Numbered from the stretch's first letter, positions 4,414 through 55,081 are shown. The stretch is DNA of 55,497 nt from Candidatus Heimdallarchaeota archaeon (GCA_023705985.1 BPTO01000002.1:1-55497), one strand, 5' to 3'. Notes: generated by a model from the letters alone, not told the origin. Made by a program: numbers and translations.

Positions 4414-4512
4414 CAAATTAAATATTCTAATCTTTACACTTTTTTGTATAATTTACTGATTTAGTATCCACATGTTTTTTATATTGAAATATTGTTTATT
4501 TATTTAACCATC

Positions 4513-6051
4513 ATGGCTTTGCAAAGTTCCTCTATAACCATCCCTTGGGTAGAAAAATACAGACCAAAAACCTTTGAAGATTTTGTAGGTAACATAGCTG
4601 AAGTTAAGAAACTAGAGAATTGGCTTAAAAAATGGAAACAAGAGAGAAAGAAAACTGCTTGGCTTTCAGGACCTGCTGGGGTGGGAAAAACAAGTGTTGT
4701 TCTATACCTTGTTAATAAATATGGTTTTGAATTTGTTGAAGTAAACGCTAGCGATAAAAGAAATAAGAAAGCTATAGAAAGAAATGTAGGTTTATCATCT
4801 ACTGAAGGAACTGTTCTACAAGGTGCTCGAGTAAAAAAACTAATACTTGTTGACGAAGCTGATGGTCTATTCGGGAATGAAGATAGAGGTGGAGCAAAAG
4901 CTCTTGCTAAAGTTGTTGAAAGAGCACGTATACCTATAATATGTACTGCTAATGATCCTAAAGCTGCTGCTCTTAAGGCAGCAAAAAAATCTATGAAGGT
5001 TTTTAATTTTGAAAGATTGAAGGATCATGAAATTTTGACTCTGCTTAAAAGAATAATAAAAAAGGAAAGTCTTTCGATAACTGAAGATATTTTAGCAAAA
5101 ATCGCAACAAACTCACATGGAGATGCGCGTTCAGCTATTAACGATTTAGAAGGAGTAGCTTTTGGTGCAATCTCTGCAGATATCACGTTTTCACCAAGAA
5201 ATCAAGAACAAAATTTGAATCAAGTTCTTACCAACATTTTCATGGCCAAGGATTTACAATCTGCAAAAAAAGCAATAGAAGGTGCTGATCTTGATTACAG
5301 AGAGCTATTAATGTATGTTTATGAACACGCATACAAACAAGCAGCAAATAATGAAGAAACTCTTAATATGTACGAGCTTATATCAGAAGCCGATTTCTAT
5401 CTTTCACAATGTTATATCAAACAAGAATGGAAGTTTCTAAAATACTTTTTTCAATTCATATCATCAGTTGGTTTGGTAAAAGAATCTTCCTTTAAATATT
5501 CTAATTTCGGTTTTCCTAGTTATTGGGGATTAATGGGAAAACTCAGAATGAGAAAGGCTAAGATAAAGAAACTGTCAGATAAAGCTGAACAAAAACTTCA
5601 TAGTTCAACAAAGTTGTTTGAAAATGATATCTATCCGTATTTGAGAATAATTTTTAGAAATGATCCCAGAATGGCTGCGGGGATTGCAGTATGGCTTAGA
5701 TTTGATCAGGATGATGTTGACTTTCTAACTGGTGGCTCTAATAAGGTTACTCAAGAAATAATGAAACACCATGAGCTGGCATATCAACAGATGGCTGAAA
5801 CATGGATAACAGAAATTAAAGAAGTAAAACCTATCAACATATTAGATTTTACAAAAAAACCCAAAAAGAGAGGAATAAAACCAATAAAAACGCAACTTCA
5901 AACTCCTCCTACAAAGGATCTCTCTCAAACCAAACCTGAACAAGAAAAAATAGAGAAAACAACACCTGTATTAAAAGAGAAAGATAAGAAAGGAAAGAAA
6001 GATAAAAAGAAAAAGCCCTCACAAGCTTCATTAGAGAAATTCTTTAATTGA
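4513..6051 (+). CDS. rfcL: Replication factor C large subunit
   Basis: PWVEKYRPKTFEDFVG, Walker A GPAGVGKTS and DEAD-like LVDEADG. A Lys-rich tail ends in the PIP box QASLEKFF. The ATG at 4513 is preferred over the TTG at 4492. Confidence 0.9.
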   Translation: MALQSSSITIPWVEKYRPKTFEDFVGNIAEVKKLENWLKKWKQERKKTAWLSGPAGVGKTSVVLYLVNKYGFEFVEVNASDKRNKKAIERNVGLSSTEGTVLQGARVKKLILVDEADGLFGNEDRGGAKALAKVVERARIPIICTANDPKAAALKAAKKSMKVFNFERLKDHEILTLLKRIIKKESLSITEDILAKIATNSHGDARSAINDLEGVAFGAISADITFSPRNQEQNLNQVLTNIFMAKDLQSAKKAIEGADLDYRELLMYVYEHAYKQAANNEETLNMYELISEADFYLSQCYIKQEWKFLKYFFQFISSVGLVKESSFKYSNFGFPSYWGLMGKLRMRKAKIKKLSDKAEQKLHSSTKLFENDIYPYLRIIFRNDPRMAAGIAVWLRFDQDDVDFLTGGSNKVTQEIMKHHELAYQQMAETWITEIKEVKPINILDFTKKPKKRGIKPIKTQLQTPPTKDLSQTKPEQEKIEKTTPVLKEKDKKGKKDKKKKPSQASLEKFFN

Positions 6052-6059
6052 ATATACTA

Positions 6060-6359
6060 TTATTTTAAGTCACTAAGTGGAAAAACTAGTCCGTTTTCAA
6101 CAAGATAGTGGAGCAATTTTTTGAAGTTAATCACAATATAAACGTCAGCTGTGATTTTTTTCTTAACCATTCCTTTCTTCGATAGAACCCCTAAAATCTC
6201 TTTTACACTTGATTCATTGATTCCTGTAACTTCAACTAGTTCTTCTAAAGTCATACCTTCATCATACATGCTTAGTGATACAGCTACAACACCAATATTA
6301 ACTCTCTCAAGAACTTCATTATCTAATAATTCGTTAGTGTTTCCTTCCTTTTCTTCCAT
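6060..6359 (-). CDS. Small winged-helix DNA-binding protein (hypothetical)
   Basis: The 99-aa sequence MTLEELVEVTGINESSVKEILGVLSKKGMVKK resembles a wHTH. It sits 5 nt downstream of the PRTase gene. Confidence 0.4.
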   Translation of the reverse strand: MEEKEGNTNELLDNEVLERVNIGVVAVSLSMYDEGMTLEELVEVTGINESSVKEILGVLSKKGMVKKKITADVYIVINFKKLLHYLVENGLVFPLSDLK

Positions 6360-6364
6360 TTAAA

Positions 6365-6958
6365 TCATTTCCTTTTCTCTTGTTCAAGGATTAGAGAGAA
6401 ATATGCTTCTACTAGTTGTGAACCGATACCAATGTCTTTGAGATACCTCTTTATTTCCTTTGGTGATTTCTTGTCTTTTAATTTGTTGTAAAGAAAACTA
6501 ATTGTTTCTCCTGCTTCCCAAGGGTAAACAACCCAATCTTCTGTTTCTTTGATATAATAATCTGGTTTTATGATACTATGTTTCTTGTAGTACAATGTAG
6601 CGGATTTCATTTTGGAAGGTTTTTTTACTTTTACATGTTTGATGGCTGCAGAAAGACTCTTTCCTGAGTCTGCTACATCATCTACAATTAAAACAGTTTT
6701 ACCTTCAACATTTTCAGAAATTTCTTGAGTTATTATTGGTTCATCAGTAGATCTAGTAGTGTTATCGTAAAATTCAATTTTAAGATTTGCTGTTCTTCTA
6801 TTGCCAAAGAAATCTGCTAATAGTCGAGCAGGTATCCACCCTCCCCTAGCTATCCCAACAATAATATCAGGATAAAACCCACTTTCAGCTATTTTTTGGA
6901 AAAGATAAAATGTCATTTGGTAACTTTGGTCCCAAGATACAATTTCGTATTCTACCAT
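6365..6958 (-). CDS. Purine (hypoxanthine/guanine/xanthine) phosphoribosyltransferase
   Basis: GIARGGWIPARLLADF and the PRPP loop VLIVDDVADSGKSL. Confidence 0.8.
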   Translation of the reverse strand: MVEYEIVSWDQSYQMTFYLFQKIAESGFYPDIIVGIARGGWIPARLLADFFGNRRTANLKIEFYDNTTRSTDEPIITQEISENVEGKTVLIVDDVADSGKSLSAAIKHVKVKKPSKMKSATLYYKKHSIIKPDYYIKETEDWVVYPWEAGETISFLYNKLKDKKSPKEIKRYLKDIGIGSQLVEAYFSLILEQEKRK

Positions 6959-7160
6959 TTTTATACCGAGAATTAATGATGGATTGTATAAGTAAAATAT
7001 GATTCTTAAACTTGTTTATCTTTTATCTTTGTCTTATTTTACAATTTGCTGATTTTTTAGATATTCAAACTTTGAACTTTGTAGAATTACCAAACTTTCG
7101 AAAGATTAAAAATCCTTTAATTATAAGGAATCTTCAATAAATAAAATCGGTGAAAAAAAC

Positions 7161-9386
7161 ATGTCGTTTATTGAAAGATTAGAAATGACTATGGAAGAAA
7201 AGCAGATCTACCAACTTCTCTTGGGCTATGGACAATTAACAGCAATTGAACTCTGTAGCCTCGGAAACTTACATTATTCTAAAGTTCAAAAAGCTTTAGA
7301 AGGATTAGCCGCAAAAGGAGCAGCTGGAGTTTCAGAAGGATATATAGAAAAATATTACTGTAGAATTCCTCTAGATTATCTGGGAGAATCGAGCGAAAAA
7401 ATAAGCAATGAAATAAGAGAACATTTGAAGGAATCTTCAACGTTCTTAAGAGAGAAAAAAACTAATTTTCATACAATTGTAGACAGTTTAAGAACTCAGC
7501 TAACAGATTCTGTCTCTCAAAAGAGCAAGGATATAGATGCCAAATTTACTCAGTTTACTACAGATATACAAAATAGCACTAAACAACAAGATGAGGAATT
7601 ATCTAGAAAATCAAATGAACTTAAAGATAATATAACATCCTTACAAGAAACACAGAAAGTTTCAGTTATATCTTCTATGAACGGGTCTATTGACGATATT
7701 AAATCCAACATGTTAGAATTCCAAAACAACCTAAGTGAAGTAATCTCTGATATTAAACAAACTAATGTAACACAAATACAATCAGCTAAAACAAAAGTCG
7801 AACAGAGTTCTACACAATCGATCGAAAAAATCCAGGTTGTATCATCTACCATCAAATCAAAAATGGAACAATTAACTGAGTCATATGCTACTGAAGTTGA
7901 TTCCATTGCTATTTTACTTGAAACTGATATAGATAAGACAAAAATAGATGTAAGAGAATTTAATCAAGCTCAAACAGAGAAAAATTTGGAATTCTCTTCT
8001 ATTGTATCAAGAAAAGCAGGGGAGACAATAGATCAGCTTTCGGATGTTGTTTCTACATCTCTTGAAGATTTAAATGGTAAACTAGGCACCATTCTAGATA
8101 ATAAAGTAACGAATTTTTCAACAAAACTTCAAGAAGCAATTGATTCGATGAGTAATCATTTACATCAAGTAAAGGAAGAAGCGATAAACGAATTAGTGGA
8201 AAATAAAAACTCAGCGATTTATTCTACAATAACTGGAATTAAGGACAAGATGGCAATAAAATTCACTGAGTTTCAAAATGAAGAACAAACGCAGAAAAAT
8301 AACCTAATCAGTGAGAGAGATGTTTTCAATCAAAAATTAGAAGCTCATTATAATGAAACCTTGACTAACTATAAACAAATAGTACAAAATATAAGAGAGC
8401 AAGCAGTAAATAGATTTGGGGTTTTTGGAGAAAATCTAACATCAGAACTTAATGAAAATACAACTGGCATAGTTGAAGGTATAAATTCGTTTAGAGAATC
8501 ATTCAAAACGCTTACAGATCAGATCGATGAAACAATTACACAAGGTTTGGATCGTAGTCATACTACTGTAGATGAGAAATGGAAACAACAAATACAAAAT
8601 CTTGATGTACTTTTCTCTGAACAGGAAACAAAAATAGTTGAACAGACACAAGAATCTATAAACAATCTTAACAACACAATTACTACACTCTCTGATGACT
8701 TAAGTAACTTCTTGCAACAAAGCGTTGATTCAATGGTAAATACAGCTAGCTCTATTGTAGAAACAACTAAGGCAGGACTTCAGGAAAACAGAACTCTTAT
8801 AGCTGGTAGCTTAGGAAATGAAGTTGACGAAGCGAAAAACTACGTTGAGGAATCAGAGAAATATTTGAATACAATATCAAACAGTTTAGTAAGCACTACT
8901 CAATCTCTAAGTAATGATTTTAAAACTCTGGAGGCAACATCAAAACAAGTGTCTGCACTACAAATTAGAACATCAACTATAATAGGAATTGATGCTGTTA
9001 TGGATCATATTGCACGAATAATTAAAGCAACTAAGAACAGAACAACGATAATGTCACCTAAAAAGGAATATATACCAATAGATGCAATAAAAGAACTTCC
9101 AAGTACAGTACAAGTAACCATCGTGACAAGTATAAACGAAGGAGATCCATGGGTAGCCGATGCTCTGGAATCTCAAGCAAATGTGAAAATAAGAGTATTA
9201 AGAGAAGGACCCGACACACCAAAATTCATTGGTGTTGAAAGGGAAAATGAAGAAGTGCTAATAGCAGCAACAGATGAAGCAACAGGAGAAGTAGTAGGTT
9301 TCATGTCTCAAAGTACTTACTTCGCTGATGCAGTGTCATTTTTAATTACAGGAAATGCTATGAGTATGTCAAAGCCACTATCATAA
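7161..9386 (+). CDS. TrmB-like HTH protein with a very long central coiled-coil region
   Basis: The N-terminus QIYQLLLGYGQLTAIELCSLGNLHYSKVQKALEGLAAKGA is TrmB-type wHTH-like. About 500 aa are S/T/Q/N/E/K-rich and poor in Pro, Gly and aromatics. The C-terminus resembles the TrmB C-domain (IGIDAVMDHIARIIKATKNRTTIMSPKK...). Confidence 0.55.
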   Translation: MSFIERLEMTMEEKQIYQLLLGYGQLTAIELCSLGNLHYSKVQKALEGLAAKGAAGVSEGYIEKYYCRIPLDYLGESSEKISNEIREHLKESSTFLREKKTNFHTIVDSLRTQLTDSVSQKSKDIDAKFTQFTTDIQNSTKQQDEELSRKSNELKDNITSLQETQKVSVISSMNGSIDDIKSNMLEFQNNLSEVISDIKQTNVTQIQSAKTKVEQSSTQSIEKIQVVSSTIKSKMEQLTESYATEVDSIAILLETDIDKTKIDVREFNQAQTEKNLEFSSIVSRKAGETIDQLSDVVSTSLEDLNGKLGTILDNKVTNFSTKLQEAIDSMSNHLHQVKEEAINELVENKNSAIYSTITGIKDKMAIKFTEFQNEEQTQKNNLISERDVFNQKLEAHYNETLTNYKQIVQNIREQAVNRFGVFGENLTSELNENTTGIVEGINSFRESFKTLTDQIDETITQGLDRSHTTVDEKWKQQIQNLDVLFSEQETKIVEQTQESINNLNNTITTLSDDLSNFLQQSVDSMVNTASSIVETTKAGLQENRTLIAGSLGNEVDEAKNYVEESEKYLNTISNSLVSTTQSLSNDFKTLEATSKQVSALQIRTSTIIGIDAVMDHIARIIKATKNRTTIMSPKKEYIPIDAIKELPSTVQVTIVTSINEGDPWVADALESQANVKIRVLREGPDTPKFIGVERENEEVLIAATDEATGEVVGFMSQSTYFADAVSFLITGNAMSMSKPLS

Positions 9387-9551
9387 TAAGAGAAAATAAG
9401 AGAAAAAAAAAACCTCTCTTTCTTTTTTTATCGTGTCACATAAATAATAGATAACAGGAAGGAGAAATACTTTTTTCGAATATTAATTATACATAATAAT
9501 ACATATTAGGATTAAAGAAACAAAAAAGAGAAAAAAAGTAGGTTAACTAGT

Positions 9552-9737
9552 TTATTCAAAGTCAATGCACTCACTGGGGCACTCATCTATACATAAACCA
9601 CAATCAGTACAGTTGTCTTTGTTAACCGTCTTAGCTATATCATCTATTAATTCATAGACATCCTCTGGACAGACATCTACACAAGCGCCACAACCAACGC
9701 AACATGATTCGTCAACAATTGTAGGAATTTTAATCAC
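9552..9737 (-). CDS. 2x[4Fe-4S] ferredoxin
   Basis: CVGCGACVDVCP and CTDCGLCIDECP cluster motifs in 61 aa. Confidence 0.9.
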   Translation of the reverse strand: MIKIPTIVDESCCVGCGACVDVCPEDVYELIDDIAKTVNKDNCTDCGLCIDECPSECIDFE

Positions 9738-9969
9738 CTTTTGATTAGTTCTAAAAAAAAATTTCCCTTTTTAACCTTTTCTATGGTAAAATGAGAGAAA
9801 AAATCAAGGTGGGATAATATTAGAACTTATTATTAAGCTTAACCCAACCAAAAAGTGATTTTGAAATTATTAAAATGTTTTTGGGCTGTAAACCACTTTC
9901 TAAGTAATCCTTAAAAAACTCGTTTTTTACCTACATATTTATTTATTGTATTGTTTTTAATATATTGTA

Positions 9970-12969
9970 ATGCAAGACTTAGTTTGTATTTACCTTAAAA
10001 CCCTCTCTCGTACTTATGATGACAATCCTCGTTCTACTATTTTAGTTGAAACTGAAGGTCAAAATGTTACTTTGAATTTGTGGTCACCTTGGGAAAATTT
10101 AGTTGATTTTCTCTCTCCCTATTCTAAATTTCGTGTTTATAAGGTAAATAAAGTTGATACAGATGATTCATTTTACTTCTCTACAGGTTCTGATTCCATT
10201 GTTATTGTTGATCCAGATGTTTTAATTAACACAACTGACATTAATAGTGTGTCTTTTTGCCCACGCAGCTATTATATTAATCAGATTGTCGGAGATCTTG
10301 CGTCTCCATATATCGCAGTAAGAGGTACAGTAATTCATAATTGTTTAGGAGCTGCTGTAGCTTTGAATTCCAAACCTTCTACAGAACTTTCTCAAGTATT
10401 GGATTCAATGTCAATACAATATGAACGATTTGGTTACACTAAAGATGATGTTTATCAAGATGTCCACAAAATGGCTGAAGCCTTAGATTCTTTTATTGAT
10501 AGAATCTCATCTCAATCTCTACCTGAAATTCTCTTTCTTTCACCCATGTTTGGTGTAAGAGGACGTATTGATATATTGGATGATAAACATATTTACGAGT
10601 TGAAAACCGCAAAAATTTCAAAGAATGATGATATTCGGTTTTCAGATCTTACACAAGTTGTAGTTTATGCTTTTGGTGTTTCGAATTCAACTGATCTCCA
10701 AGAAATCGGTCAAGGATCTGTTATTTATGTAGGTAAAAATGAAGTAGTTCAAAAATCAGCTGATTCTTCTTGGGGTATATTGCGTTTTGCTATGCGAATG
10801 CGTAATATTGCTTATGGTATCTCTTATCATGGGTATGTTCCACCAATTCTATCTGAATCACAACAAAAAAGATGTCACAAATGCTCAGTTAAACACTTCT
10901 GTGCAATGTTGTGTGCTGGTCTAGAACAGCAAAGAACTTGTTCTTCTTGCCCTCACAACCTCTTCTGTACAAAGAATGCACTTTCAAAGAATTATCAACA
11001 GTATTTCAGCAAGTATTCGAATCTACTTAGATTAGAAAAGACAGAATGGGCTAGAAATCAAGCAAATTTATGGATGTTATCTCCTGATCAACGAGTTGCT
11101 AAAGGAAAAGCAATAAGTAACTTAGTTCTTGAAAATGAAATAACTGAAGATGGAATAACTAGGTTGTTGTTTTCCTGTAAAAATGATTCAGAATTGAGAG
11201 AGGGTGATATCGTTGTCATGAGTCAAGGAAATGTTTTGGAAAATACTATAAGCACTTGTATTATATCCGGAATTTCCAATAATTCAGTTGAAATCGAAGT
11301 AAGAGGTAACCTTCCTCAGGTTACATTTATCGATATATATTCTATAGATGTAGGATTTAGAAGACAACAAAGAGGTTTATTCAATCATGTTTTCAAGAGA
11401 AATAATTTCAGCTGTTATGTTATTGATAATGAAAAACCAGAAATCACCCCAATCAAAGGTGATTATATAAAGAACAATCCGGTTCAAAATGGCGCAATAG
11501 AAAAAATTCTAGGAACTAAGGGTTATTGTTTAATTCAAGGTCCTGCTGGAACAGGAAAAACTCATGTAATAGCTAAGGCCGCAATTCTTCTAGCTAATAA
11601 GGGCGAAAAAATTTTGCTCACTGCCTTTACTAATAGAGCTGTGGATAATGTATGTAAATATCTTGTAAATAATCGATACTACAACTTTGTTAGACTGGGT
11701 TCTTCACACTCGATTCAACAAGAAATACGTGAATACACACTTCAAAAGTATCGAGAAAAAAATCCTGATAAGACTTCAAGAGAACTTCTACAGCAGATTC
11801 CTATAATTGTGGCAACAACAGCAACAATCTCTAATCCATCATTTGAACAGTTAGGGATACAAACAATAATTATAGATGAAGCTAGTCAAATGACTGAACC
11901 CACATTACTCTCTGCTATTATGGAAGGGGATAGAATGATACTTGTAGGGGACCATAAACAGCTTCCTCCTGTTGTTCAGAACCCTAAATCGCAAAAAGGT
12001 GGCCTATCTCTTTCTTTGTTTGAAAGATTAGGACAAATATCTTCCAAAACTATTCATCTATTAACGCATCAGTTTAGAATGAACGAAAAAATTGTTGAAT
12101 TTTCAAATGAAACTTTTTATGATGGTAAATTAAAATCATTTGACAATCTCGTAAAGTTGCAAAATCTGCTTGATTTGGGATCTTTTACGGGAGATTACGA
12201 AAACTTAGACAATCCACTGATATATTCTCCTAAAACCCCTTTGGTTTTTATTCAAATAACTGGGGTATATCAGCCTGATCGAAAAGTTAACCTTCAAGAA
12301 GCAAAAATTGTAGGGAAGATAACAAATCATTTCTTACAGATGGGTATTAGCATTGATCAAATTGGAGTTATAGCACCATATAGGGGACAAGTAGGTGAAA
12401 TAAGACGCTATTTACCGCCAAATGTCACAGTAGATACTGTTGATAGATTTCAAGGTAGTGATAGAGAAATAATAATTTTGTCTCTGACGGAACTAATACC
12501 TCGAAGAAGTAAGGGTTTCGGAGATTATCGTCGGTTGAATGTGTCAATTACACGTGCCAAGAAAAAGCTTGTAGTGGTTGGTAATCCATCAATCAATGAG
12601 AAGATACTTGGAGAATATGTTGATTATCTTAAAGAAAAATCAGCTGTTGTAAAAATAGATTTTGTTGAAGATATAGTAGAAAAAGAGATAGTACAAGAAA
12701 TAATAGTTGTAGCTGAAAACATTTCAAAAACAGCTAGAATCCTTAAAAAAGTGATAGTTAAAAGTAAGAAAATCACTGAAGCAAAAGGTGACCGAAATAA
12801 CTGTTTAATCTGTTTTCAACCTATATATGAAAATGCTATCGAATGCCCATTTTGTGAAAGACTTTTCCATATTGATCATCTAGTGGCATGGATAGAAGAA
12901 AGTGAACGATGTCCATACTGTAAAACAAAACTAATTTTGCACAGAATATCGAGAAGTAATAAAATTTGA
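9970..12969 (+). CDS. Dna2/Cas4-type Fe-S nuclease fused to an SF1 (Upf1/Dna2-like) helicase with a C-terminal RING/PHD-like zinc finger
   Basis: Nuclease: FCPRSYY, GRIDIL...YELKTAK, QVVVY and CHKCSVKHFC. Helicase: GPAGTGKTH, IIIDEASQ, VGDHKQLPP, HQFRM, VDRFQGSDREIIILS and LNVSITRAKKKLVVVG. Finger at nt 12802..12921: CLIC-x10-CPFC-x4-H-x2-H-x10-CPYC. Confidence 0.8.
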   Translation: MQDLVCIYLKTLSRTYDDNPRSTILVETEGQNVTLNLWSPWENLVDFLSPYSKFRVYKVNKVDTDDSFYFSTGSDSIVIVDPDVLINTTDINSVSFCPRSYYINQIVGDLASPYIAVRGTVIHNCLGAAVALNSKPSTELSQVLDSMSIQYERFGYTKDDVYQDVHKMAEALDSFIDRISSQSLPEILFLSPMFGVRGRIDILDDKHIYELKTAKISKNDDIRFSDLTQVVVYAFGVSNSTDLQEIGQGSVIYVGKNEVVQKSADSSWGILRFAMRMRNIAYGISYHGYVPPILSESQQKRCHKCSVKHFCAMLCAGLEQQRTCSSCPHNLFCTKNALSKNYQQYFSKYSNLLRLEKTEWARNQANLWMLSPDQRVAKGKAISNLVLENEITEDGITRLLFSCKNDSELREGDIVVMSQGNVLENTISTCIISGISNNSVEIEVRGNLPQVTFIDIYSIDVGFRRQQRGLFNHVFKRNNFSCYVIDNEKPEITPIKGDYIKNNPVQNGAIEKILGTKGYCLIQGPAGTGKTHVIAKAAILLANKGEKILLTAFTNRAVDNVCKYLVNNRYYNFVRLGSSHSIQQEIREYTLQKYREKNPDKTSRELLQQIPIIVATTATISNPSFEQLGIQTIIIDEASQMTEPTLLSAIMEGDRMILVGDHKQLPPVVQNPKSQKGGLSLSLFERLGQISSKTIHLLTHQFRMNEKIVEFSNETFYDGKLKSFDNLVKLQNLLDLGSFTGDYENLDNPLIYSPKTPLVFIQITGVYQPDRKVNLQEAKIVGKITNHFLQMGISIDQIGVIAPYRGQVGEIRRYLPPNVTVDTVDRFQGSDREIIILSLTELIPRRSKGFGDYRRLNVSITRAKKKLVVVGNPSINEKILGEYVDYLKEKSAVVKIDFVEDIVEKEIVQEIIVVAENISKTARILKKVIVKSKKITEAKGDRNNCLICFQPIYENAIECPFCERLFHIDHLVAWIEESERCPYCKTKLILHRISRSNKI

Positions 12970-13019
12970 AGCTATAATAAATAAAAGAAAAAAGAAAAAA
13001 AAGAAATTGAGATTTACTC

Positions 13020-14801
13020 TTATCTTCTTCTTCGGAGAGCAAGTAAAGATGCTAATCCGAGGAATGAAAGGAAGATTAATCCTGCAATTCCACCTTGTTT
13101 TGTACCTTTAGTTAGATCGTATCCAGCTTCAACCATGTATTCTCTTGCAAGATCCATGTCATAAGCATAAGGCTCTAACGTGGAATCAAAACCGAGAGAT
13201 GCGTCAGGCATTGGGCTTGAAGCAGGAGATGCTAGACCTTCAAGAATCTCGTCGCAAATTAATTGACGAGGAACAGAGTGGCTGATAGCTTTACGAATAG
13301 CTAAAGCTGCGGCAGCATCACCATTAGGTGTTAACTCTCCAGTACCAAAGACTGGGTGTTTGAGGTTAATAGCCATTTCTTGTGAACCAGGGTCAGCAAT
13401 CAAAACAGCGTCGATACCAACAACATCAGCATAGTCATCAAGAACTGGTGAGTATTGAGAGTCGACAATTTCAACTGTACCAGCAGCGAGATCAGCAATA
13501 GCTGAGTCTTTACCACTGATAAATGTGAAGATTAATTGATCTAATGAAGGAGTAGCTCCATGCCAGTATGGGTTGGGTTCAAGCACTGCTGTGCCAGTAA
13601 CTGTGTCATAATCAGCTAAAATGAATGGACCACAAGATGTAACAAGAGATGTTCCTTCTACTGTAGCTATTGGTTCCATATTGAAAAGCCCAGCTCCTTC
13701 AACAAGGTAGTATGGATCAACTACAGATTTGTCAATTATCTGAAATGAGAACAAAGATTTAGCTAAGAAGTAAGGTTGTTTCAAGTTGAATTGAATAGTA
13801 GAGTCATCAAGAACGACAATAGAATCATTAGTTTCAAAGAATTGAGTCAGATACCCATAATTTGCAGATGCTACAGCTGGCGTCATGTGTAATTGATAAG
13901 TATATTTGATGTCTTCTGCAAGAACTGGATCTCCATTGCTGAATTTAGCAAGAGGATCAATTGAAACGTTAAACTGCAAGTTATCCGCGCTTACAACTGG
14001 TACTCCATCTGCAATTACAGGTTCAAAAAGTCTTGTAGTTTGTGCTCTTGCGTATAGAGTTCCATATACACAAGCCATCCATTGAGCATCATAATATGAC
14101 GCTTGAACATAAGTGTTGTATTCTGTTAGTTCAGCTGGTAGAGCATATGTAATGACATCATCAGCATCAGTGCCAGTTTCTTCCCAGTATTCTGCTCGGA
14201 GGCTACTTGTTGCGATTAACAGTTCATCATAGCCAGTGACGTTCTCATTTATTCCAAAGAGTGATTTTGGATAGATGAGTTCAATTGCTGGGAGATCATC
14301 ATAGAGCATCTGTTGAATTGACTTAACTAGAGGAAGTCTAGCAGTTGGATCAAGTTCAGAAGTATATTGAAGGAGTAAAGCGTCATAAGCCTCATTACTG
14401 TATTGATACATGTTGTCTCCAGCTGGTGTAATACTAGCAGTGTCAAACAAACCTGTTGGATCCCAATCTAATCCCCATGACCAACCGACGAAGAGGATAT
14501 CATAACCTCCATCACCGTATGTGGGTATGTAGTCAAAATCTACACCTACAGGAAATTCCCATGTTCTCGGGTAAATGCTTCCCCATCCTGTTGATTCATG
14601 ATGGGATACTCCAATACCAATTAGTGGTAATTGGTTTTCCATTAGGATTGCCCATTGATTTCGTGCAGGATTAGTGTTTGGTGACAGTAGATTAAGATAA
14701 AATACTGGTTCTTCTACATCTTGAGCAGTTGCTGGTAGAAGCAAAACTGAAGTACTACACAAAATAACTAGGGCAATGCCGAATATTGCTTTTTTATTCA
14801 T
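13020..14801 (-). CDS. ABC transporter substrate-binding protein, family 5 (peptide/nickel type), with a C-terminal membrane anchor
   Basis: Signal peptide MNKKAIFGIALVILCSTSVLLLPATAQD and a large acidic family-5-SBP-like body. The C-terminal hydrophobic helix ends in LALRRRR. GGTGA sits 7 nt before the ATG, and GC is visibly higher than in neighbouring genes. Confidence 0.7.
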   Translation of the reverse strand: MNKKAIFGIALVILCSTSVLLLPATAQDVEEPVFYLNLLSPNTNPARNQWAILMENQLPLIGIGVSHHESTGWGSIYPRTWEFPVGVDFDYIPTYGDGGYDILFVGWSWGLDWDPTGLFDTASITPAGDNMYQYSNEAYDALLLQYTSELDPTARLPLVKSIQQMLYDDLPAIELIYPKSLFGINENVTGYDELLIATSSLRAEYWEETGTDADDVITYALPAELTEYNTYVQASYYDAQWMACVYGTLYARAQTTRLFEPVIADGVPVVSADNLQFNVSIDPLAKFSNGDPVLAEDIKYTYQLHMTPAVASANYGYLTQFFETNDSIVVLDDSTIQFNLKQPYFLAKSLFSFQIIDKSVVDPYYLVEGAGLFNMEPIATVEGTSLVTSCGPFILADYDTVTGTAVLEPNPYWHGATPSLDQLIFTFISGKDSAIADLAAGTVEIVDSQYSPVLDDYADVVGIDAVLIADPGSQEMAINLKHPVFGTGELTPNGDAAAALAIRKAISHSVPRQLICDEILEGLASPASSPMPDASLGFDSTLEPYAYDMDLAREYMVEAGYDLTKGTKQGGIAGLIFLSFLGLASLLALRRRR

Positions 14802-14914: not shown

Positions 14915-15574
14915 TCAACTAAGATCGGTTACACTTTTGGGCAAGATATCTTTAGGTGAGTGGTTCATAAATCTTTCACCTGGCGTTTGGAGACCTATGC
15001 CTTGGTGAGGATGGAAGAAGTTATAGAAGTCGTCCTTGTAGTTACGAAGGTCAGCGTTGCAGTACATTAATCCTAACCTCTTCATCTCCCTGACAGTTGT
15101 CCCATGCTGACGCTCTACCTTTCCACAGGTTTCAGGATGGAAGACACGACTACGAATATGCTTTACTCCTTCTTGAGCGAGGACAAGGGTGAAGGTACTT
15201 GTTCCTCCTCGCATAGAGTGGAACTGTGTACCATTATCAATTAAGACCTGACGGGGGTGACCATAGTTCTGGAAGCAGCATTTTAACCTTGTTAAGATTT
15301 CTTGCTGACTTATAGGATGGGGATAAACTCTCGATTCGAGGAGAAAGCGGGAATGGTCATTAATAATCGTCAAGAGATAGAGGTGCTGTCCCTGCTCTTT
15401 CACCCAGAAAGGTCCTTTGATGTCCAGCTGCCAGAGGTCATTAGGACGAGGTCGCTCGAACCTCTTCCGCGCTTTCTTCTTAACGGGTTTGGTTCTCCAA
15501 GACGATTCTCCAGCTTGTTGGAGGATCCTCCAGATGGTCGATGGGAGAGAACCAACCCTTTCCTCTTGAACCAC
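14915..15574 (-). CDS. Transposase catalytic (rve, DDE) portion in the -1 frame relative to the N-terminal portion
   Basis: DLWQLDIKG (D), VLIDNGTQF (D) and HPETCGKVERQ (E). The integrase-core order is typical of IS481/IS3-type enzymes. Confidence 0.8.
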   Translation of the reverse strand: MVQEERVGSLPSTIWRILQQAGESSWRTKPVKKKARKRFERPRPNDLWQLDIKGPFWVKEQGQHLYLLTIINDHSRFLLESRVYPHPISQQEILTRLKCCFQNYGHPRQVLIDNGTQFHSMRGGTSTFTLVLAQEGVKHIRSRVFHPETCGKVERQHGTTVREMKRLGLMYCNADLRNYKDDFYNFFHPHQGIGLQTPGERFMNHSPKDILPKSVTDLS

Positions 15575-36219: not shown

Positions 36220-36408
36220 ATGGTTAATATACGAAAATGCTCATTTTGTGGAAAAGAATACAACCAAGGTTACGGTATGATTTATGTTCAAAGATCCGGC
36301 TCAGTGTTGAACTTCTGTTCAAATAAGTGCAAAAAATCTCAATTAAAATTAAAACGAGATCCAAAGAAGTTGAAGTGGAGTGCAAAATACGAGAGAAAAA
36401 TTTTGTAA
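36220..36408 (+). CDS. rpl24e: Ribosomal protein L24e
   Basis: RKCSFCGKEYNQGYGMIYVQRSGSVLNFCSNKCKK. Confidence 0.95.
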   Translation: MVNIRKCSFCGKEYNQGYGMIYVQRSGSVLNFCSNKCKKSQLKLKRDPKKLKWSAKYERKIL

Positions 36409-36508
36409 ACATTCCCTTTTTTCTCCATTTCATTTTTATTCTTACAACCAATTTGTTTTTAATTACTTATTCAAGAAATATTTCAGTTTCAGTTTCACGG
36501 TGACATAA

Positions 36509-41364: not shown

Positions 41365-43599
<2,235 letters not shown>

Positions 43600-47607: not shown

Positions 47608-50600
47608 TTATTTTTTAGCCATTGCTTTTCGTAATTCTTTTATTGATTCATAAGGTTGGTTAATAGCTAGCGTAAATTCTACCACAGCTTTTTCTTTAGG
47701 TTTCAAATCAAATAAAGAAATCATGAAATTCATTATTGTTACTTGAGCATCAAATATTGTATTAGAACCATGAAAGCCATCCGGACATATGAAATCTAAA
47801 GATTTAGAATTTTTTGTAATTCTCACCCATGGTTCATCTGGATTAGCGTGACCCATAAACGGTTTCAACACTCTATTTCTTGTCCATGTTTTTAGTCCTC
47901 CTGGAACATGAATTACATTATCTTCTACATCTCCTTGCATGCATATATCAGCTAACAAGGCTGCAATACTTCTAATACGCCTTGAAGAAGTGTTATTGCA
48001 TTCATATTTGATGCGAACTAAATTAGAATCAGGTAAAGTAAAATAGCTCAGTGAAATTTCCTGTCCTTTTAGATGCTCAGATTTTGAAATTATCCATGTA
48101 GATTTGATTCCTTTCCATTCTCCATCTTCAACTATTTCAGCTTTTGTTTTTTCAGGTTCTGAGAATGGGTTATCCTCGTTCATCCAGAAAACTAAAGGTT
48201 GAATCCCACCGATGAAATGATCGATGAAGAATTTTGGTTGAATTTTTGGAAAATTGTCATCAAAGTATGTGGTACTCTCGTTATCTTCAAGTTTTATTAA
48301 ATTACCTCCAAAAAACTTAGGAACACTGAATTGGAGAGCTCCGTTTTTAACTAAATAGATAGGTTCTCCTTCTATCTCACACTCTTCAATTGCTACATCA
48401 TTTTTTCCTTTAAGGACTATGGGAATTTCAAAGTTAAGTTCATATTCACTAATAAAACGTAAATTTAACATATCTATAGCTTTTATTGTATTAATTTGAG
48501 GAGTGAGTTCTATCTCAATTGGAATAGGAACGTTAGGTGTTGGTTGGGGTATGGATATCATACTTTTATTGTCTCCTGAGGTTTTGAAACCACCATTCCA
48601 TCCTTTTGGAAGTACTAATTTTAATTCCCCTGCAAATGGATAGGGAGTTTCAAAAACTAATTCTATGATTTTTGATACTGTAATGCCTTTTTCTAAGATG
48701 TTAGAACCCTTCAGTCTAATTTCAATAGGTTGGACAGTTTTTACTCCAAACATTCTCTCTTCATCGGGTATTTCTTTACAATTAACAAATTGATTCCATC
48801 GATTTCTTACATCCTGTATCGAAGTGTATGAATGCCCAAACCATGTATGAACTACTTCTAGAGTTTCATTCTGTTCTAACATCTTTGACTCACTTTCAAG
48901 ATTATCAAGGATGCCTTTAGTTACTTTAACTTTTGATATATTATCAGGTTTCCAGAACCATGCAGCAAAAGATGCCTCCCCCAGATACTCTCCTGCTGTC
49001 CAGGTTTCATGCCAATCTTTCGATTCTATCGGAACCAAAGTGTCACTCATTACGGGTAAAGTTGGGTCACACTCAATATACTTGTTATTCACAGGCGTAA
49101 TGACTCTTGCATAGTTTCCGAAGGGATTAACGTTAAGTCCTTGTGGAACACCGGTTGAAAATCTTCCTCCCGCAGCTAACCCACTATCAGATATGTTAGT
49201 CAACTCAATCCAATGTTCAAATTCACGAATTCCGGGTGTTACTTTAACAAATTTCTGAATCTTAAGACCCTCAACTTTCCTACTTTTAGCATGTAATTCA
49301 AGAGTGATTTCATTTCCTTCCTTTACTTTTTTATAGTCAAATTTCAAAGTTCTATCCAAATCTAAACCAAAAGGGGGACCTATCTGAAAAATGGATCTTA
49401 CTTGACCACCTTCTAGATTTCTTCGTGCAAAGGTCATATTTCCACCTTCAAGAAATACCTCTATTGACCAAAAATCAGTGAGAAGTGTTATTCTTTCTTC
49501 ATTTTGTCCTTCTATTACTTCTGCTAAGTTCGTTATATCTGCAACAATTGGTATCTTATATTCTGGCATTATGTGGTAAGAATCGGAAATCTTTATTGCT
49601 GGTTTAGCTAAAATAGTGAATACTGTCTGATGCGGTTTCACAGGAATTGTGATTGGAATATCTATTCCTGTTATTTCTTCTGGTTCTAAATTGAACTCTA
49701 CTGTTTTACTTCCCTCTTTGATACCATCTATTTGGATATCAACTTTACCTTCAATTTTTTTATTACTGTGATTAAATAAATCAAGATAAACAATTTTTTC
49801 TGTTCCTACAGGAGCTACTTCATACTGGAAGTCACTTGTCAGTTTTACAGCAGGTTTAATTTTTCCACCTGTTAACAGTTCTAGATTATATTTTTCAAAT
49901 GAAATTGATGTTCTTATTACTTCAGAACCTCTTTGATTTGATTTAAATTCAGTAGCAGTGTTATCAACAATAAACTCTCTGGATATTTCTACATCTTCTC
50001 CATTCTTAACGGTGATAGATTGCGGAAATTCCTCTTTCCATGTTAAACCTTTAAATGGAGTAATAGACAATGCAAAACTAATATCTTCGCCTAAATCATT
50101 ATTAATTGTGATTGTCATGGTATTGCTAATTCCCATCAAAATTTCGTGTGATTCCAGCCTAGTTTTTATTGAAATAGCTTTACCATCAAGAACGCGTGTA
50201 ATGCTTGTAAACCCCCATCCATAACGGTCAACTTCTGCAGTTAATTTATCATCATCAACTTCAAAGATATAAGTATAAAGTTCCATTTTGTCGACAATGT
50301 ACTTATCAGGTGCTTGGGTTAGTTCTCTTTTAAAACACCCATACCAATCTTGATGTTTTTCAAACCATTCCACTGCAAGAGGCGTTTGTAATAACCCTGG
50401 AATGAAATCTTGCATATATACACTTGTTTCAGGAACCCAATACAAGCCAACTTTTTTGTAAAGCGGCATGGCTTCCATGTTGCCTGACCAGGTATAAAGA
50501 TCGACACGTTCTCTGCCATTATTTTTAGCGACTTCAAGCGCTTTTAAGAGCAGTCTTTTACCAAATTTCTTTCCTTGAACTCGTGGAATAACTCCTAATA

Positions 50601-50859
50601 TGGTAATATAGGCTGCCTTTTCATCTCGCCAATGAGGGTATAGACCGCAGTAACCCACGGGCACTCCTTCTTGGTCAACAGCTACCAAGTCCGCGATTGC
50701 AGATGTTTTATCTAACCACTCTTTCACTCTTTGTTCTGTATAAGGAATTCCTCCACCGAATCCACCTAACCATAATTCATTAAATGCATTAAACATATCA
50801 GCACATTCACTGGCCATTACTGGGTCGTAAACAGTGATTTTTCCCCATTCTTCACTCAT
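47608..50859 (-). CDS. Large cytoplasmic protein: an N-terminal GNAT acetyltransferase domain fused to about 900 aa of unassigned beta-rich sequence
   Basis: GNAT motif A: YITILGVIPRVQGKKFGKRLLLKALEVAKNNG. No signal peptide or TM segment. The rest has no motif I recognise. Confidence 0.6.
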   Translation of the reverse strand: MSEEWGKITVYDPVMASECADMFNAFNELWLGGFGGGIPYTEQRVKEWLDKTSAIADLVAVDQEGVPVGYCGLYPHWRDEKAAYITILGVIPRVQGKKFGKRLLLKALEVAKNNGRERVDLYTWSGNMEAMPLYKKVGLYWVPETSVYMQDFIPGLLQTPLAVEWFEKHQDWYGCFKRELTQAPDKYIVDKMELYTYIFEVDDDKLTAEVDRYGWGFTSITRVLDGKAISIKTRLESHEILMGISNTMTITINNDLGEDISFALSITPFKGLTWKEEFPQSITVKNGEDVEISREFIVDNTATEFKSNQRGSEVIRTSISFEKYNLELLTGGKIKPAVKLTSDFQYEVAPVGTEKIVYLDLFNHSNKKIEGKVDIQIDGIKEGSKTVEFNLEPEEITGIDIPITIPVKPHQTVFTILAKPAIKISDSYHIMPEYKIPIVADITNLAEVIEGQNEERITLLTDFWSIEVFLEGGNMTFARRNLEGGQVRSIFQIGPPFGLDLDRTLKFDYKKVKEGNEITLELHAKSRKVEGLKIQKFVKVTPGIREFEHWIELTNISDSGLAAGGRFSTGVPQGLNVNPFGNYARVITPVNNKYIECDPTLPVMSDTLVPIESKDWHETWTAGEYLGEASFAAWFWKPDNISKVKVTKGILDNLESESKMLEQNETLEVVHTWFGHSYTSIQDVRNRWNQFVNCKEIPDEERMFGVKTVQPIEIRLKGSNILEKGITVSKIIELVFETPYPFAGELKLVLPKGWNGGFKTSGDNKSMISIPQPTPNVPIPIEIELTPQINTIKAIDMLNLRFISEYELNFEIPIVLKGKNDVAIEECEIEGEPIYLVKNGALQFSVPKFFGGNLIKLEDNESTTYFDDNFPKIQPKFFIDHFIGGIQPLVFWMNEDNPFSEPEKTKAEIVEDGEWKGIKSTWIISKSEHLKGQEISLSYFTLPDSNLVRIKYECNNTSSRRIRSIAALLADICMQGDVEDNVIHVPGGLKTWTRNRVLKPFMGHANPDEPWVRITKNSKSLDFICPDGFHGSNTIFDAQVTIMNFMISLFDLKPKEKAVVEFTLAINQPYESIKELRKAMAKK

Positions 50860-54778: not shown

Positions 54779-55081
54779 CTAGAACTTAAGATTGTGATGA
54801 GCATGTGCTTCTGAATTATCTTTGAGGTAGATTACGATATCAATTCGAAATGTTCCCCATCCTCTTGCACTGAAAGCAAACTTTGTGTCACGGTTTGTTA
54901 CAACTTGAATCGGATCAGGAAAGCTTGGATGTAAGTGGTACTCGACTTTATCAACTGAATCCAGTTTAGTATCGTCTTCATCCATATAAATTGTCCATTC
55001 ATACCACGTGTAGTCTCCTCTAGAGATGTTAGGCAAGGATTTTGCATCATTGTTAAATTTGAATTCTATTTGTTTATTCAT
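54779..55081 (-). CDS. Stand-alone YEATS-like domain protein
   Basis: YEWTIYMDEDDTKLDSVDKVEYHLHPSFPDPIQVVTNRDTKFAFSARGWGTFRIDIVIYLKD aligns motif-for-motif with eukaryotic YEATS (W.v.v...V.KV.FHLHeSFp.P.r.v..pPf...e.GyagF.i.i.iyfk). Confidence 0.7.
   Translation of the reverse strand: MNKQIEFKFNNDAKSLPNISRGDYTWYEWTIYMDEDDTKLDSVDKVEYHLHPSFPDPIQVVTNRDTKFAFSARGWGTFRIDIVIYLKDNSEAHAHHNLKF

Follow-up and report, generated by a model that had tools for sequence, protein, structure and literature searches.

Gene and domain architecture

A 55,497-nt stretch of DNA from a Candidatus Heimdallarchaeota archaeon (GCA_023705985.1, BPTO01000002.1:1-55497), hereafter the window, encodes on its plus strand a 999-amino-acid (aa) protein that is a Dna2-family nuclease-helicase by its sequence and predicted structure, and that carries a predicted RING domain of the RING-H2 type at its C-terminus (Dna2-RING). 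The open reading frame (ORF) starts with the ATG at 9970 and ends with the stop codon at 12967-12969. A three-part ORF had been described here in an initial annotation made from the sequence alone, and all the motifs quoted in it are found in their places. The region 11500-13100 is identical between contigs of three different public sequencing runs, and a fourth public run provides a 97% variant, the sole indel of which is located 3' of the stop codon. The ORF 9970..12969 is real, and the finger motif in it is far beyond chance. Proteins from about 30 Heimdallarchaeota genomes align with the product from residue 1 to about residue 990; an alignment of 28 orthologous sequences, with 55-97% identity, is the basis of the invariance counts given below and the input for AlphaFold. 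The gene and its parts are as follows, with confidence of the model given as predicted local distance difference test (pLDDT).

9970..12969, plus strand: complete Dna2-RING gene (ORF aligned with the orthologues over residues 1 to ~990)
9970..10209, plus strand: N-terminal OB-like beta-barrel (aa 1-80); all-beta in the AlphaFold model with pLDDT ~90, the Pfam Dna2 match beginning at residue 29
10222..10974, plus strand: PD-(D/E)xK nuclease with the Dna2/Cas4 Fe-S 'staple' (aa 85-335); Pfam matches and alignment with the mouse DNA2 nuclease
10912..10968, plus strand: second cysteine motif C315-x8-C324-x2-C327-x-H329-x3-C333, invariant in the 28 orthologues
10987..11337, plus strand: stalk helix and beta-barrel domain (aa 340-456); helix 340-369 and strands 381-456 in the AlphaFold model, inside the alignment with mouse Dna2 (5EAN)
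11467..12654, plus strand: SF1B (Upf1/Dna2-like) helicase, domains 1A and 2A (aa 500-895); Pfam matches, motifs all intact
12655..12795, plus strand: variable linker tethering the RING to the helicase (aa 896-942, 47 aa); low conservation, and low AlphaFold confidence at 898-909 and 930-940
12796..12951, plus strand: predicted C-terminal RING domain (aa 943-994); zf-RING_2 match, RING-H2 profile matches and RING fold matches

The order of domains is thus an OB-like N-terminus, a PD-(D/E)xK Fe-S nuclease, a stalk with a beta-barrel, an SF1B helicase, a linker and the finger. Pfam matches consist of Dna2 (29-183), PDDEXK_1 (89-311) and AAA_11/AAA_12 (503-873; E 1e-35 to 1e-42), together with AAA_19 and AAA_30. 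The nuclease contains the motifs FCPRSYY (C97), GRIDIL (D201), YELKTAK (E210 and K212), QVVVY (Q229 and Y233) and CHKCSVKHFC (C302, C305 and C311), and each residue in brackets is invariant in the 28 orthologues except C97, which is found in 27. C97 and C302-x2-C305-x5-C311 constitute the putative Fe-S staple, in alignment with the CxxCxxxxxC of mouse DNA2. The helicase motifs, Walker A GPAGTGKT (524-531), DEASQ (636-640), GDHKQLPP (660-667), RFQG (826-829) and RLNV..TR (855-862), are invariant or nearly so across the orthologues. The Cas4/Dna2-type Fe-S nuclease and the complete Upf1/Dna2-like SF1 helicase of the initial annotation are thereby both confirmed.

The best solved sequence relative is mouse DNA2 (E 1.6e-63; identity ~23%), of which residues 628-1041 are matched by the helicase stretch (E 2.4e-58) and the nuclease/Fe-S region aligns more weakly. 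Along the full-length AlphaFold model (pLDDT 80.4; predicted TM-score (pTM) 0.75), a beta-barrel at the N-terminus is followed by an alpha/beta nuclease, a long stalk helix, another beta-barrel, a pair of RecA-like domains, a weakly ordered linker and a small beta-beta-alpha domain. In a Foldseek search, this model is aligned with mouse Dna2 (5EAN) over 1029 columns, nearly the whole protein (E 9.7e-58; TM 0.72/0.69), and the other matches (IGHMBP2, UPF1, SEN1, ZNFX1, Aquarius and nsp13) span the helicase core alone. On all features testable here, from motifs to the modelled fold, the protein is a Dna2-family nuclease-helicase.

The second cysteine motif follows directly after the Fe-S motif, giving the array C302-x2-C-x5-C-x3-C-x8-C-x2-C-x5-C. 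Both the Heimdallarchaeaceae and the Kariarchaeaceae clade keep it, as do some RING-less relatives (Bathyarchaeota P0053 and Sericytochromatia P0056). The Hod-type (Hodarchaeales-type) clade, haloarchaea and the mouse DNA2 sequence lack it, and so do the other retrieved proteins that a motif scan did not flag. The AlphaFold confidence is below 50 at residues 321-333, within this motif, which could hold a second Fe-S cluster or a zinc site.

A promoter-like element precedes the gene.

9924..9952, plus strand: promoter-like element TTTTTACCTACATATTTATTTATTGTATT with an A/T-rich TATA-like box, about 25-35 nt 5' of the ATG

This 29-nt element is near-identical among the window and the loci L003 and L012, and the rest of their upstream regions is unalignable. 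As the A/T-rich element has been kept while the surrounding intergenic DNA has diverged, the Dna2-RING gene is suggested to own a promoter, and the element may act as an archaeal promoter. Just beyond the gene, extra contig matches at 12975-13014 represent an A-rich low-complexity sequence and no repeat element.

The C-terminal finger

Mean column conservation is 0.48 in the linker, 0.74 in the RING and 0.75 in the helicase. The finger proper occupies nt 12802..12921, from C945 to C984, and reads CLIC-x10-CPFC-x4-H-x2-H-LVAW-x6-CPYC. Its eight ligands (C945, C948, C959, C962, H967, H970, C981 and C984) are invariant in the 28 orthologues, and so are P960, W974 and P982. The position and the number of ligands are exactly those of the initial annotation, which had also drawn attention to a Trp four residues past ligand 6 followed by CPxC, that is, to the region of the invariant W974 and P982. 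The spacing agrees with the RING consensus C-x2-C-x(9-39)-C-x(1-3)-[HC]-x(2-5)-[HC]-x2-[CH]-x(4-48)-C-x2-C, with ligands of the C4H2C2 type instead of C3H2C3.

The initial annotation had named RING, RING-CH, PHD and other treble-clef families as those with which the tail should be compared. Among these, zf-RING_2 is matched over its full 44-position profile, with 27.0 bits for a 79-aa tail, 27.9 bits for a 62-aa tail and 20.8 bits for the full-length protein at a cut-off of 27.3. The families zf-RING_2, zf-rbx1 and zf-RING_16 match all of the 28 orthologous tails, zf-RING_2 with a best E of 3.1e-9, and some orthologues bear a precomputed PF13639 annotation. PHD and RING-CH are missing among the 25 Pfam families listed for the tail and for the 28 orthologous tails, and RING families are at the top of both. 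A profile built from the 28 tails was compared with PDB, where it matched HRD1/synoviolin (E 1.7e-7), RNF126, Arkadia, AMFR/gp78, EL5, RNF165 and RNF38, all of which are RING-H2 E3s. A word-indexed search with the tail profile returned only two short orthologue fragments and so gave no indication of the nearest RING relatives beyond Dna2.

In the AlphaFold model of the tail (pLDDT 82.8), a beta-hairpin precedes a helix that starts from ligand 5, a beta-beta-alpha arrangement. The best 50 PDB fold matches of this model are all RING domains (TM 0.46-0.76), including the RING of Rad18, with neither a zinc ribbon nor a PHD finger among them, and the best of them superpose with a root-mean-square deviation of 1.3-1.8 Å over 46-52 residues. 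In hidden Markov model alignments, C962 coincides with ligand 3 of RING-H2, and the His that canonically serves as ligand 4 falls at residue 964. The window protein has Arg at this position, only 16 of the 28 orthologues have His there, and C959 is invariant in every clade. Since 964 is variable and C959 is invariant, C959 and C962 are assigned to the ligand pair 3/4. The finger is thus a C4H2C2 set, with spacing like that of PHD and RING-CH on an otherwise RING-H2-like sequence (FH..H...W......CPxCK). By analogy with the RING topology, zinc site 1 is proposed to be formed by C945, C948, H967 and H970, and site 2 by C959, C962, C981 and C984. The tail is accordingly interpreted as a binuclear cross-brace RING of the RING-H2 type, presumably with metals bound at both sites. 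The RING-H2 hallmark recognized in the initial annotation stands, and its PHD/RING spacing is refined to the assignment of ligands 3 and 4 given above. Its PHD family is not retained. A PHD finger was rejected for the reasons that ligand 6 is His and not Cys and that PHD lies outside the listed Pfam families and the top 50 fold matches.

Distribution of the fusion

When one genome per GTDB species was scanned, orthologues of full length that bear the RING tail turned up in about 30 Heimdallarchaeota species, and the closed genomes of Ca. Heimdallarchaeum endolithica and Ca. H. aukensis have one copy each. A group with 32-34% identity (one record labelled Hodarchaeota and three Heimdallarchaeota) also has a RING-like terminal finger. 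The C-terminal finger is present in 82 of 238 retrieved proteins, all 82 of which belong to Heimdallarchaeaceae-, Kariarchaeaceae- or Hodarchaeales-type clades, and it was not found in the retrieved Dna2 proteins of Bathyarchaeota, Sericytochromatia, Chloroflexi-like bacteria, haloarchaea and eukaryotes. The haloarchaeal homologues, with ~30% identity over residues 10-890, end right after the helicase. More than 12 further RING-bearing clusters, mutually less than 50% identical, came from searching 1.8 billion representative proteins exhaustively with a profile, and their source-named members are all labelled Kariarchaeaceae or Heimdallarchaeota. From this distribution over clades, which answers the question of phyletic spread raised in the initial annotation, the fusion is considered to be old and to have been inherited stably within Heimdallarchaeia, broadly defined. 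It also serves as a useful lineage marker, in that the RING clades bear the tail and the other Dna2-like proteins examined here do not.

A rough neighbour-joining tree (numpy, Kimura distances, bootstraps), which was not relied on for orthology, grouped the Heimdallarchaeaceae clade, one Kariarchaeaceae-labelled lineage and the Hod-type clade at 98%. Eukaryotes were monophyletic in this tree (100%), and their grouping with Heimdallarchaeia received 1%, so that their attachment point was not recovered. According to a maximum-likelihood analysis in a 2025 paper on the Asgard replisome, some Asgard homologues seem to be relatives of eukaryotic Dna2 (PMC12680538).

One contig labelled Candidatus Thorarchaeota (L031, JBHLQZ010000041.1) has a Dna2-RING fragment 60% identical to the window protein, and its tail and downstream genes are like those of Heimdallarchaeota loci such as L018. 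The label is probably due to mis-binning or mislabelling, rather than to a fusion in Thorarchaeia.

Putative E2-contact residues and a possible ubiquitin ligase function

Four residues of the finger outside the ligand set occupy positions known from E2 binding and activation. I947 (between ligands 1 and 2), W974 (in the helix) and P982 (after ligand 7) are putative E2-contact residues, and K985 (after ligand 8) takes the place of the linchpin. Position 947 is I, V or L in all of the 28 orthologues, W974 and P982 are present in 28/28, and position 985 is K in 27 and R in one. The ending CPxC[KR] is also found in the Kariarchaeaceae-type clade, which is ~30% identical overall. In the RING E3 of Caldiarchaeum subterraneum, mutation of the equivalents I30, W58 and R69 impaired ubiquitylation (PMC5654768). 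In Heimdallarchaeota AB_125, genes are present for ubiquitin (HeimAB125_14240) and for two E2-like proteins (HeimAB125_07740 and HeimAB125_09840) that have a catalytic Cys (PMC9192718). This genome bears an orthologue of Dna2-RING with the same synteny (L023), the copy of which ends at a contig edge at residue 742.

Because the E2-contact residues are conserved like the helicase core and because Heimdallarchaeota have been reported to possess ubiquitin and catalytic E2s, we lean slightly towards the reading in which this Dna2 enzyme has a second role as a RING E3 that is targeted to DNA structures and modifies itself or nearby fork and end-processing proteins. E3 activity, E2 binding, catalysis and substrates are all predicted here from residue conservation and by analogy. 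By homology, the Dna2 body would thread a free 5' single-stranded DNA (ssDNA) end or flap through the Fe-S-stabilized PD-(D/E)xK nuclease, and the SF1B motor would then translocate in the 5'->3' direction, as in eukaryotic Dna2 and bacterial Bad. While the enzyme is at work on a flap, on a resected end or at a stalled fork, the RING on its linker might recruit E2~ubiquitin and promote ubiquitylation of the enzyme itself or of neighbours, such as an ssDNA-binding protein, PCNA or other fork factors. The outcome would be a link of DNA-end processing with ubiquitin signalling or turnover.

Several observations weigh against a ligase. The zf-RING_2 score of the window protein is borderline, right at the Pfam cut-off, and the cross-brace geometry comes from a predicted model. 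The Hod-type clade has neither the Pro after ligand 7 nor the linchpin (CVTCQ, CAACL), and the Trp is missing in some Kariarchaeaceae-type members; owing to these losses, the E2-binding surface is not universal in the family. No gene for E1, E2, ubiquitin or JAB was found in the window by phmmer and Pfam on predicted ORFs (the Pfam scan covered predicted ORFs of at least 70 aa, with the short ORF region 36224-36451 scanned and the ORF 54779-55081 left out). Likewise, in 37 Heimdallarchaeia loci (~600 kb), single-sequence phmmer, a search of limited sensitivity, detected no ubiquitin, E2, SUMO or MoeB at distances of up to 10 kb from Dna2-RING; the queries were human ubiquitin, UBE2D2, SUMO1 and E. 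coli MoeB. As both searches were empty, there is no genomic linkage of Dna2-RING to the ubiquitin system. Moreover, many RINGs are non-catalytic scaffolds, as exemplified by the GATOR2 RINGs among the fold matches of the tail.

These points bring in a second possibility, clearly less probable than the first although still to be taken seriously, in which the enzyme is the same Dna2 and the RING is a non-catalytic module for protein-protein interaction, dimerization or nucleic-acid binding that transfers no ubiquitin. Such a module might dock the enzyme on PCNA, an ssDNA-binding protein or another subunit. It would be consistent with the lack of ubiquitin-system genes found in the window or near the gene in the 37 loci, with the retention of the finger in spite of the loss of the Hod-type Pro and linchpin and of the Trp in some Kariarchaeaceae-type members, and with the presence of scaffolding RINGs (GATOR2 WDR24/SEH1-associated) among both the fold and the profile matches. 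On the other hand, the four residues conserved in the window's clade and the Kariarchaeaceae-type clade are those for E2 binding and activation, not for folding, the closest sequence relatives of the tail are all active RING-H2 E3s, and catalytic E2s and ubiquitin are present in Heimdallarchaeota (PMC9192718).

A third explanation, which we regard as improbable, is that the protein is a defence- or restriction-like nuclease-helicase effector, with the RING serving for immune signalling or regulation. It arises from the Hod-type loci L032, L033 and L035, where the gene directly precedes that of an Eco57I/MmeI-type N6-adenine methyltransferase with a TaqI_C specificity domain.

L032, 5684-7516: Hod-type methyltransferase gene, directly 3' of Dna2-RING
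L035, 12874-14637: Hod-type methyltransferase gene, directly 3' of Dna2-RING
L033, ~5256-6974: Hod-type methyltransferase gene, directly 3' of Dna2-RING

The methyltransferase gene overlaps Dna2-RING in L032 and abuts its stop codon in L035, and the three methyltransferases are mutually 44-48% identical; the two genes may form a restriction-like pairing specific to the Hod-type clade. L035 has two more DNA methylases downstream. The helicase core also resembles MkoA, DpdJ and others in PADLOC, and 'PLuB helicase-like' in NCBIfam. These matches are, however, limited to the SF1 helicase core or short Cas4-like nuclease stretches, and over its full length the protein is matched structurally by eukaryotic Dna2 alone. 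In the window's clade, no methyltransferase gene adjoins Dna2-RING, which lies in a stable housekeeping block in about 25 genomes and is preceded by a conserved promoter-like element of its own. Patchy distribution and mobility, which are usual in defence genes, are not seen for this gene within Heimdallarchaeaceae. Membership of a known anti-phage family (PADLOC, PLuB) was rejected for the window protein, which has no full-length match to one and no defence-island context.

It is still less probable that the tail consists of two sequential, non-interleaved zinc ribbons, the structure that the initial annotation had set against a RING. Weak matches to Pfam DZR (double zinc ribbon) occur in 21 of the 28 tails (best E 3.3e-5; 16.9-18.8 bits for the window protein), and four CxxC-like knuckles can always be read in this way. 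RING families nevertheless outscore DZR and zf-RING_2 spans its whole profile, the His-x2-His followed by a Trp-bearing helix is RING-specific, and the tail is modelled as beta-beta-alpha; since its 50 top fold matches in PDB are all RING with no ribbon, the zinc-ribbon alternative is not upheld.

Finally, an assembly or frameshift artefact joining a helicase gene to a small RING gene, a concern of the initial annotation, has practically no chance of explaining the fusion, because it is carried by identical contigs in three independent runs and an indel-free variant in a fourth, and by related genomes (about 30 GTDB species, two of the genomes closed, and 82 retrieved proteins).

Comparison with known systems

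Eukaryotic Dna2 (mouse DNA2; 5EAN/5EAW/5EAX) has the same domain order as the Dna2-RING protein, shares with it the C-x2-C-x5-C motif and the nuclease and helicase motifs, and is both its best sequence match and its only full-length fold match. It ends just after helicase domain 2A without a RING, whereas the Heimdallarchaeial protein adds one, and the extra C-x8-C-x2-C-x5-C motif of the archaeal protein is absent from the mouse sequence. The Dna2-like enzymes of haloarchaea, Bathyarchaeota and bacteria share the Fe-S nuclease and the SF1B helicase, and they also end after the helicase with no RING. Bad of Geobacillus is an Fe-S-containing ssDNA endonuclease with a 5'->3' motor (PMC7430649).

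For the RING, the nearest archaeal counterparts are Caldiarchaeum srfp and its Asgard homologues. They are of the RING-H2 type, and I947, W974 and K985 have their equivalents there in the Ile of the E2 contact, the Trp of the helix and the Arg/Lys of the linchpin (PMC5654768). srfp is a small stand-alone protein that is encoded in a ubiquitin operon and works with an archaeal E1/E2/ubiquitin cascade (PMC5654768), while the RING of the window protein forms the C-terminus of a nuclease-helicase of 999 aa, shows no linkage to ubiquitin genes and has C-P-x-C instead of C-x-H for ligands 3/4. HRD1/synoviolin, RNF126, Arkadia/RNF165, AMFR and EL5, the best matches of the tail, are 27-30% identical to it and share FH..[CH]...W......CP.C[RK]. 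Unlike the window tail, HRD1-type RING-H2s are C3H2C3; the tail is C4H2C2, with the Cys of ligand 4 placed upstream (CPxC) and His as ligand 6, and the host proteins are unrelated.

In eukaryotes, Rad5/HLTF/SHPRH and Rad18 combine a DNA-dependent motor or a DNA-binding protein with a RING E3 whose ubiquitylation targets are fork proteins, PCNA among them. Rad5 and HLTF are SF2 Snf2-type ATPases with a RING inserted between the motor lobes and without a nuclease. The window protein differs from them in having an SF1B helicase, a nuclease and a C-terminal RING, and homology between them is confined to the RING.

Significance of the fusion

Dna2 is central in lagging-strand maturation, end resection and fork recovery of eukaryotes, and ubiquitylation by RING E3s is the main control of these processes. 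Heimdallarchaeia are generally regarded as the archaeal class closest to eukaryotes. Conservation in Heimdallarchaeia of a Dna2 homologue fused to a RING that looks able to bind E2 therefore offers a concrete, testable approach to the question of when, and by what route, ubiquitin signalling and genome maintenance came to be coupled. As the protein is a single polypeptide and others have previously expressed or modelled its candidate partners, the ubiquitin and E2s of Heimdallarchaeia (PMC9192718), this coupling is amenable to examination in vitro.

A bolder extension, which we think doubtful, is that ubiquitin signalling was already wired to replication and repair in the archaeal ancestors of eukaryotes, that Dna2-RING is a DNA-structure-activated E3 and that the RING form is ancestral to eukaryotic Dna2. 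If so, Heimdallarchaeial Dna2 would ubiquitylate itself, or PCNA or an RPA-like ssDNA-binding protein, at flaps, resected ends and stalled forks, and eukaryotes would have dropped the RING once stand-alone or Snf2-linked E3s (Rad18, Rad5/HLTF) took over.

Archaeal and bacterial Dna2-like enzymes, RING E3s of Aigarchaeota and Asgard archaea and helicase-RING proteins of eukaryotes are already known. The novelty lies in their combination: the complete set of Dna2 domains is joined to a RING-H2-like domain at the C-terminus, and this arrangement is conserved throughout Heimdallarchaeia. In the literature searched, no paper describing a Dna2-RING fusion was found, in agreement with the statement of the initial annotation that no archaeal Dna2-type enzyme with a RING had been described. 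Dna2 homologues of Asgard archaea are covered in the 2025 paper on the Asgard replisome, in whose main text the words 'RING', 'ubiquitin' and 'zinc finger' do not occur (PMC12680538); a review of Haloferax replication does not mention Dna2. Public records name these proteins just 'AAA domain-containing protein' or 'Dna2'.

Genomic neighbourhood

In about 25 loci, Dna2-RING resides in a block of conserved order, consisting of genes for an AP-endonuclease-2-like protein, an ADI-like protein, a hypothetical protein, an RFC-large-subunit-like AAA+ protein, a winged helix-turn-helix (wHTH) protein, a phosphoribosyltransferase, a 741-aa TrmB-coiled-coil protein, a 61-aa 2x[4Fe-4S] ferredoxin, Dna2-RING, a solute-binding protein and an ABC transporter. 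The window as a whole is a housekeeping region, with genes for an exosome RNase PH subunit, ribosomal proteins L37ae, S2, L7Ae and S28e, Pcc1, RNA polymerase subunit N, aIF5B, TiaS, NDK, mevalonate-pathway kinases and Cdc48. Dna2-RING in the window's clade behaves as a syntenic core gene.

The RFC-large-subunit-like AAA+ protein (4492-6051, plus strand; Rad17 P-loop, AAA and RFC lid) is encoded ~4 kb 5' of dna2 and is a second replication-related gene there. The 741-aa protein (7161-9386, plus strand) has an N-terminal TrmB-type wHTH, a long Ser/Thr/Gln/Glu-rich coiled-coil-like region and a conserved C-terminal domain. The ferredoxin gene (9552-9737, minus strand) lies just 5' of dna2, an adjacency seen in 26 loci. 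It is inverted in the window and the identical contig L001 and is on the same strand as dna2 in all other loci; no inverted repeats flank the flipped gene. In L012, an extra 200-aa gene (9041-9643, plus strand) is located between the TrmB-coiled-coil gene and the ferredoxin gene, and its product starts with a zinc ribbon, contains hydrophobic segments and ends in a RING-H2-like finger, CHIC...CGHTVH..E...W......CPIC, with Glu as ligand 6. It is thus a further RING-type protein encoded beside Dna2-RING.

Farther away, a 1083-aa ORF (47608-50859, minus strand) has a GNAT acetyltransferase match in its N-terminal ~140 residues, the remaining residues, at least 900, being without a Pfam match. A Cdc48/p97-type double-AAA+ ATPase with CDC48_N is encoded at 41365-43599 (minus strand), 28 kb from dna2, with no linkage implied; eukaryotic Cdc48/p97 extracts ubiquitylated proteins from chromatin. 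Between the genes for the solute-binding protein and the ABC transporter, an rve-family integrase ORF of 219 aa (14915-15574, minus strand) is found, which among the other retrieved loci is present only in L022 and looks like an insertion sequence (IS) element or a remnant of one inserted in the conserved block.

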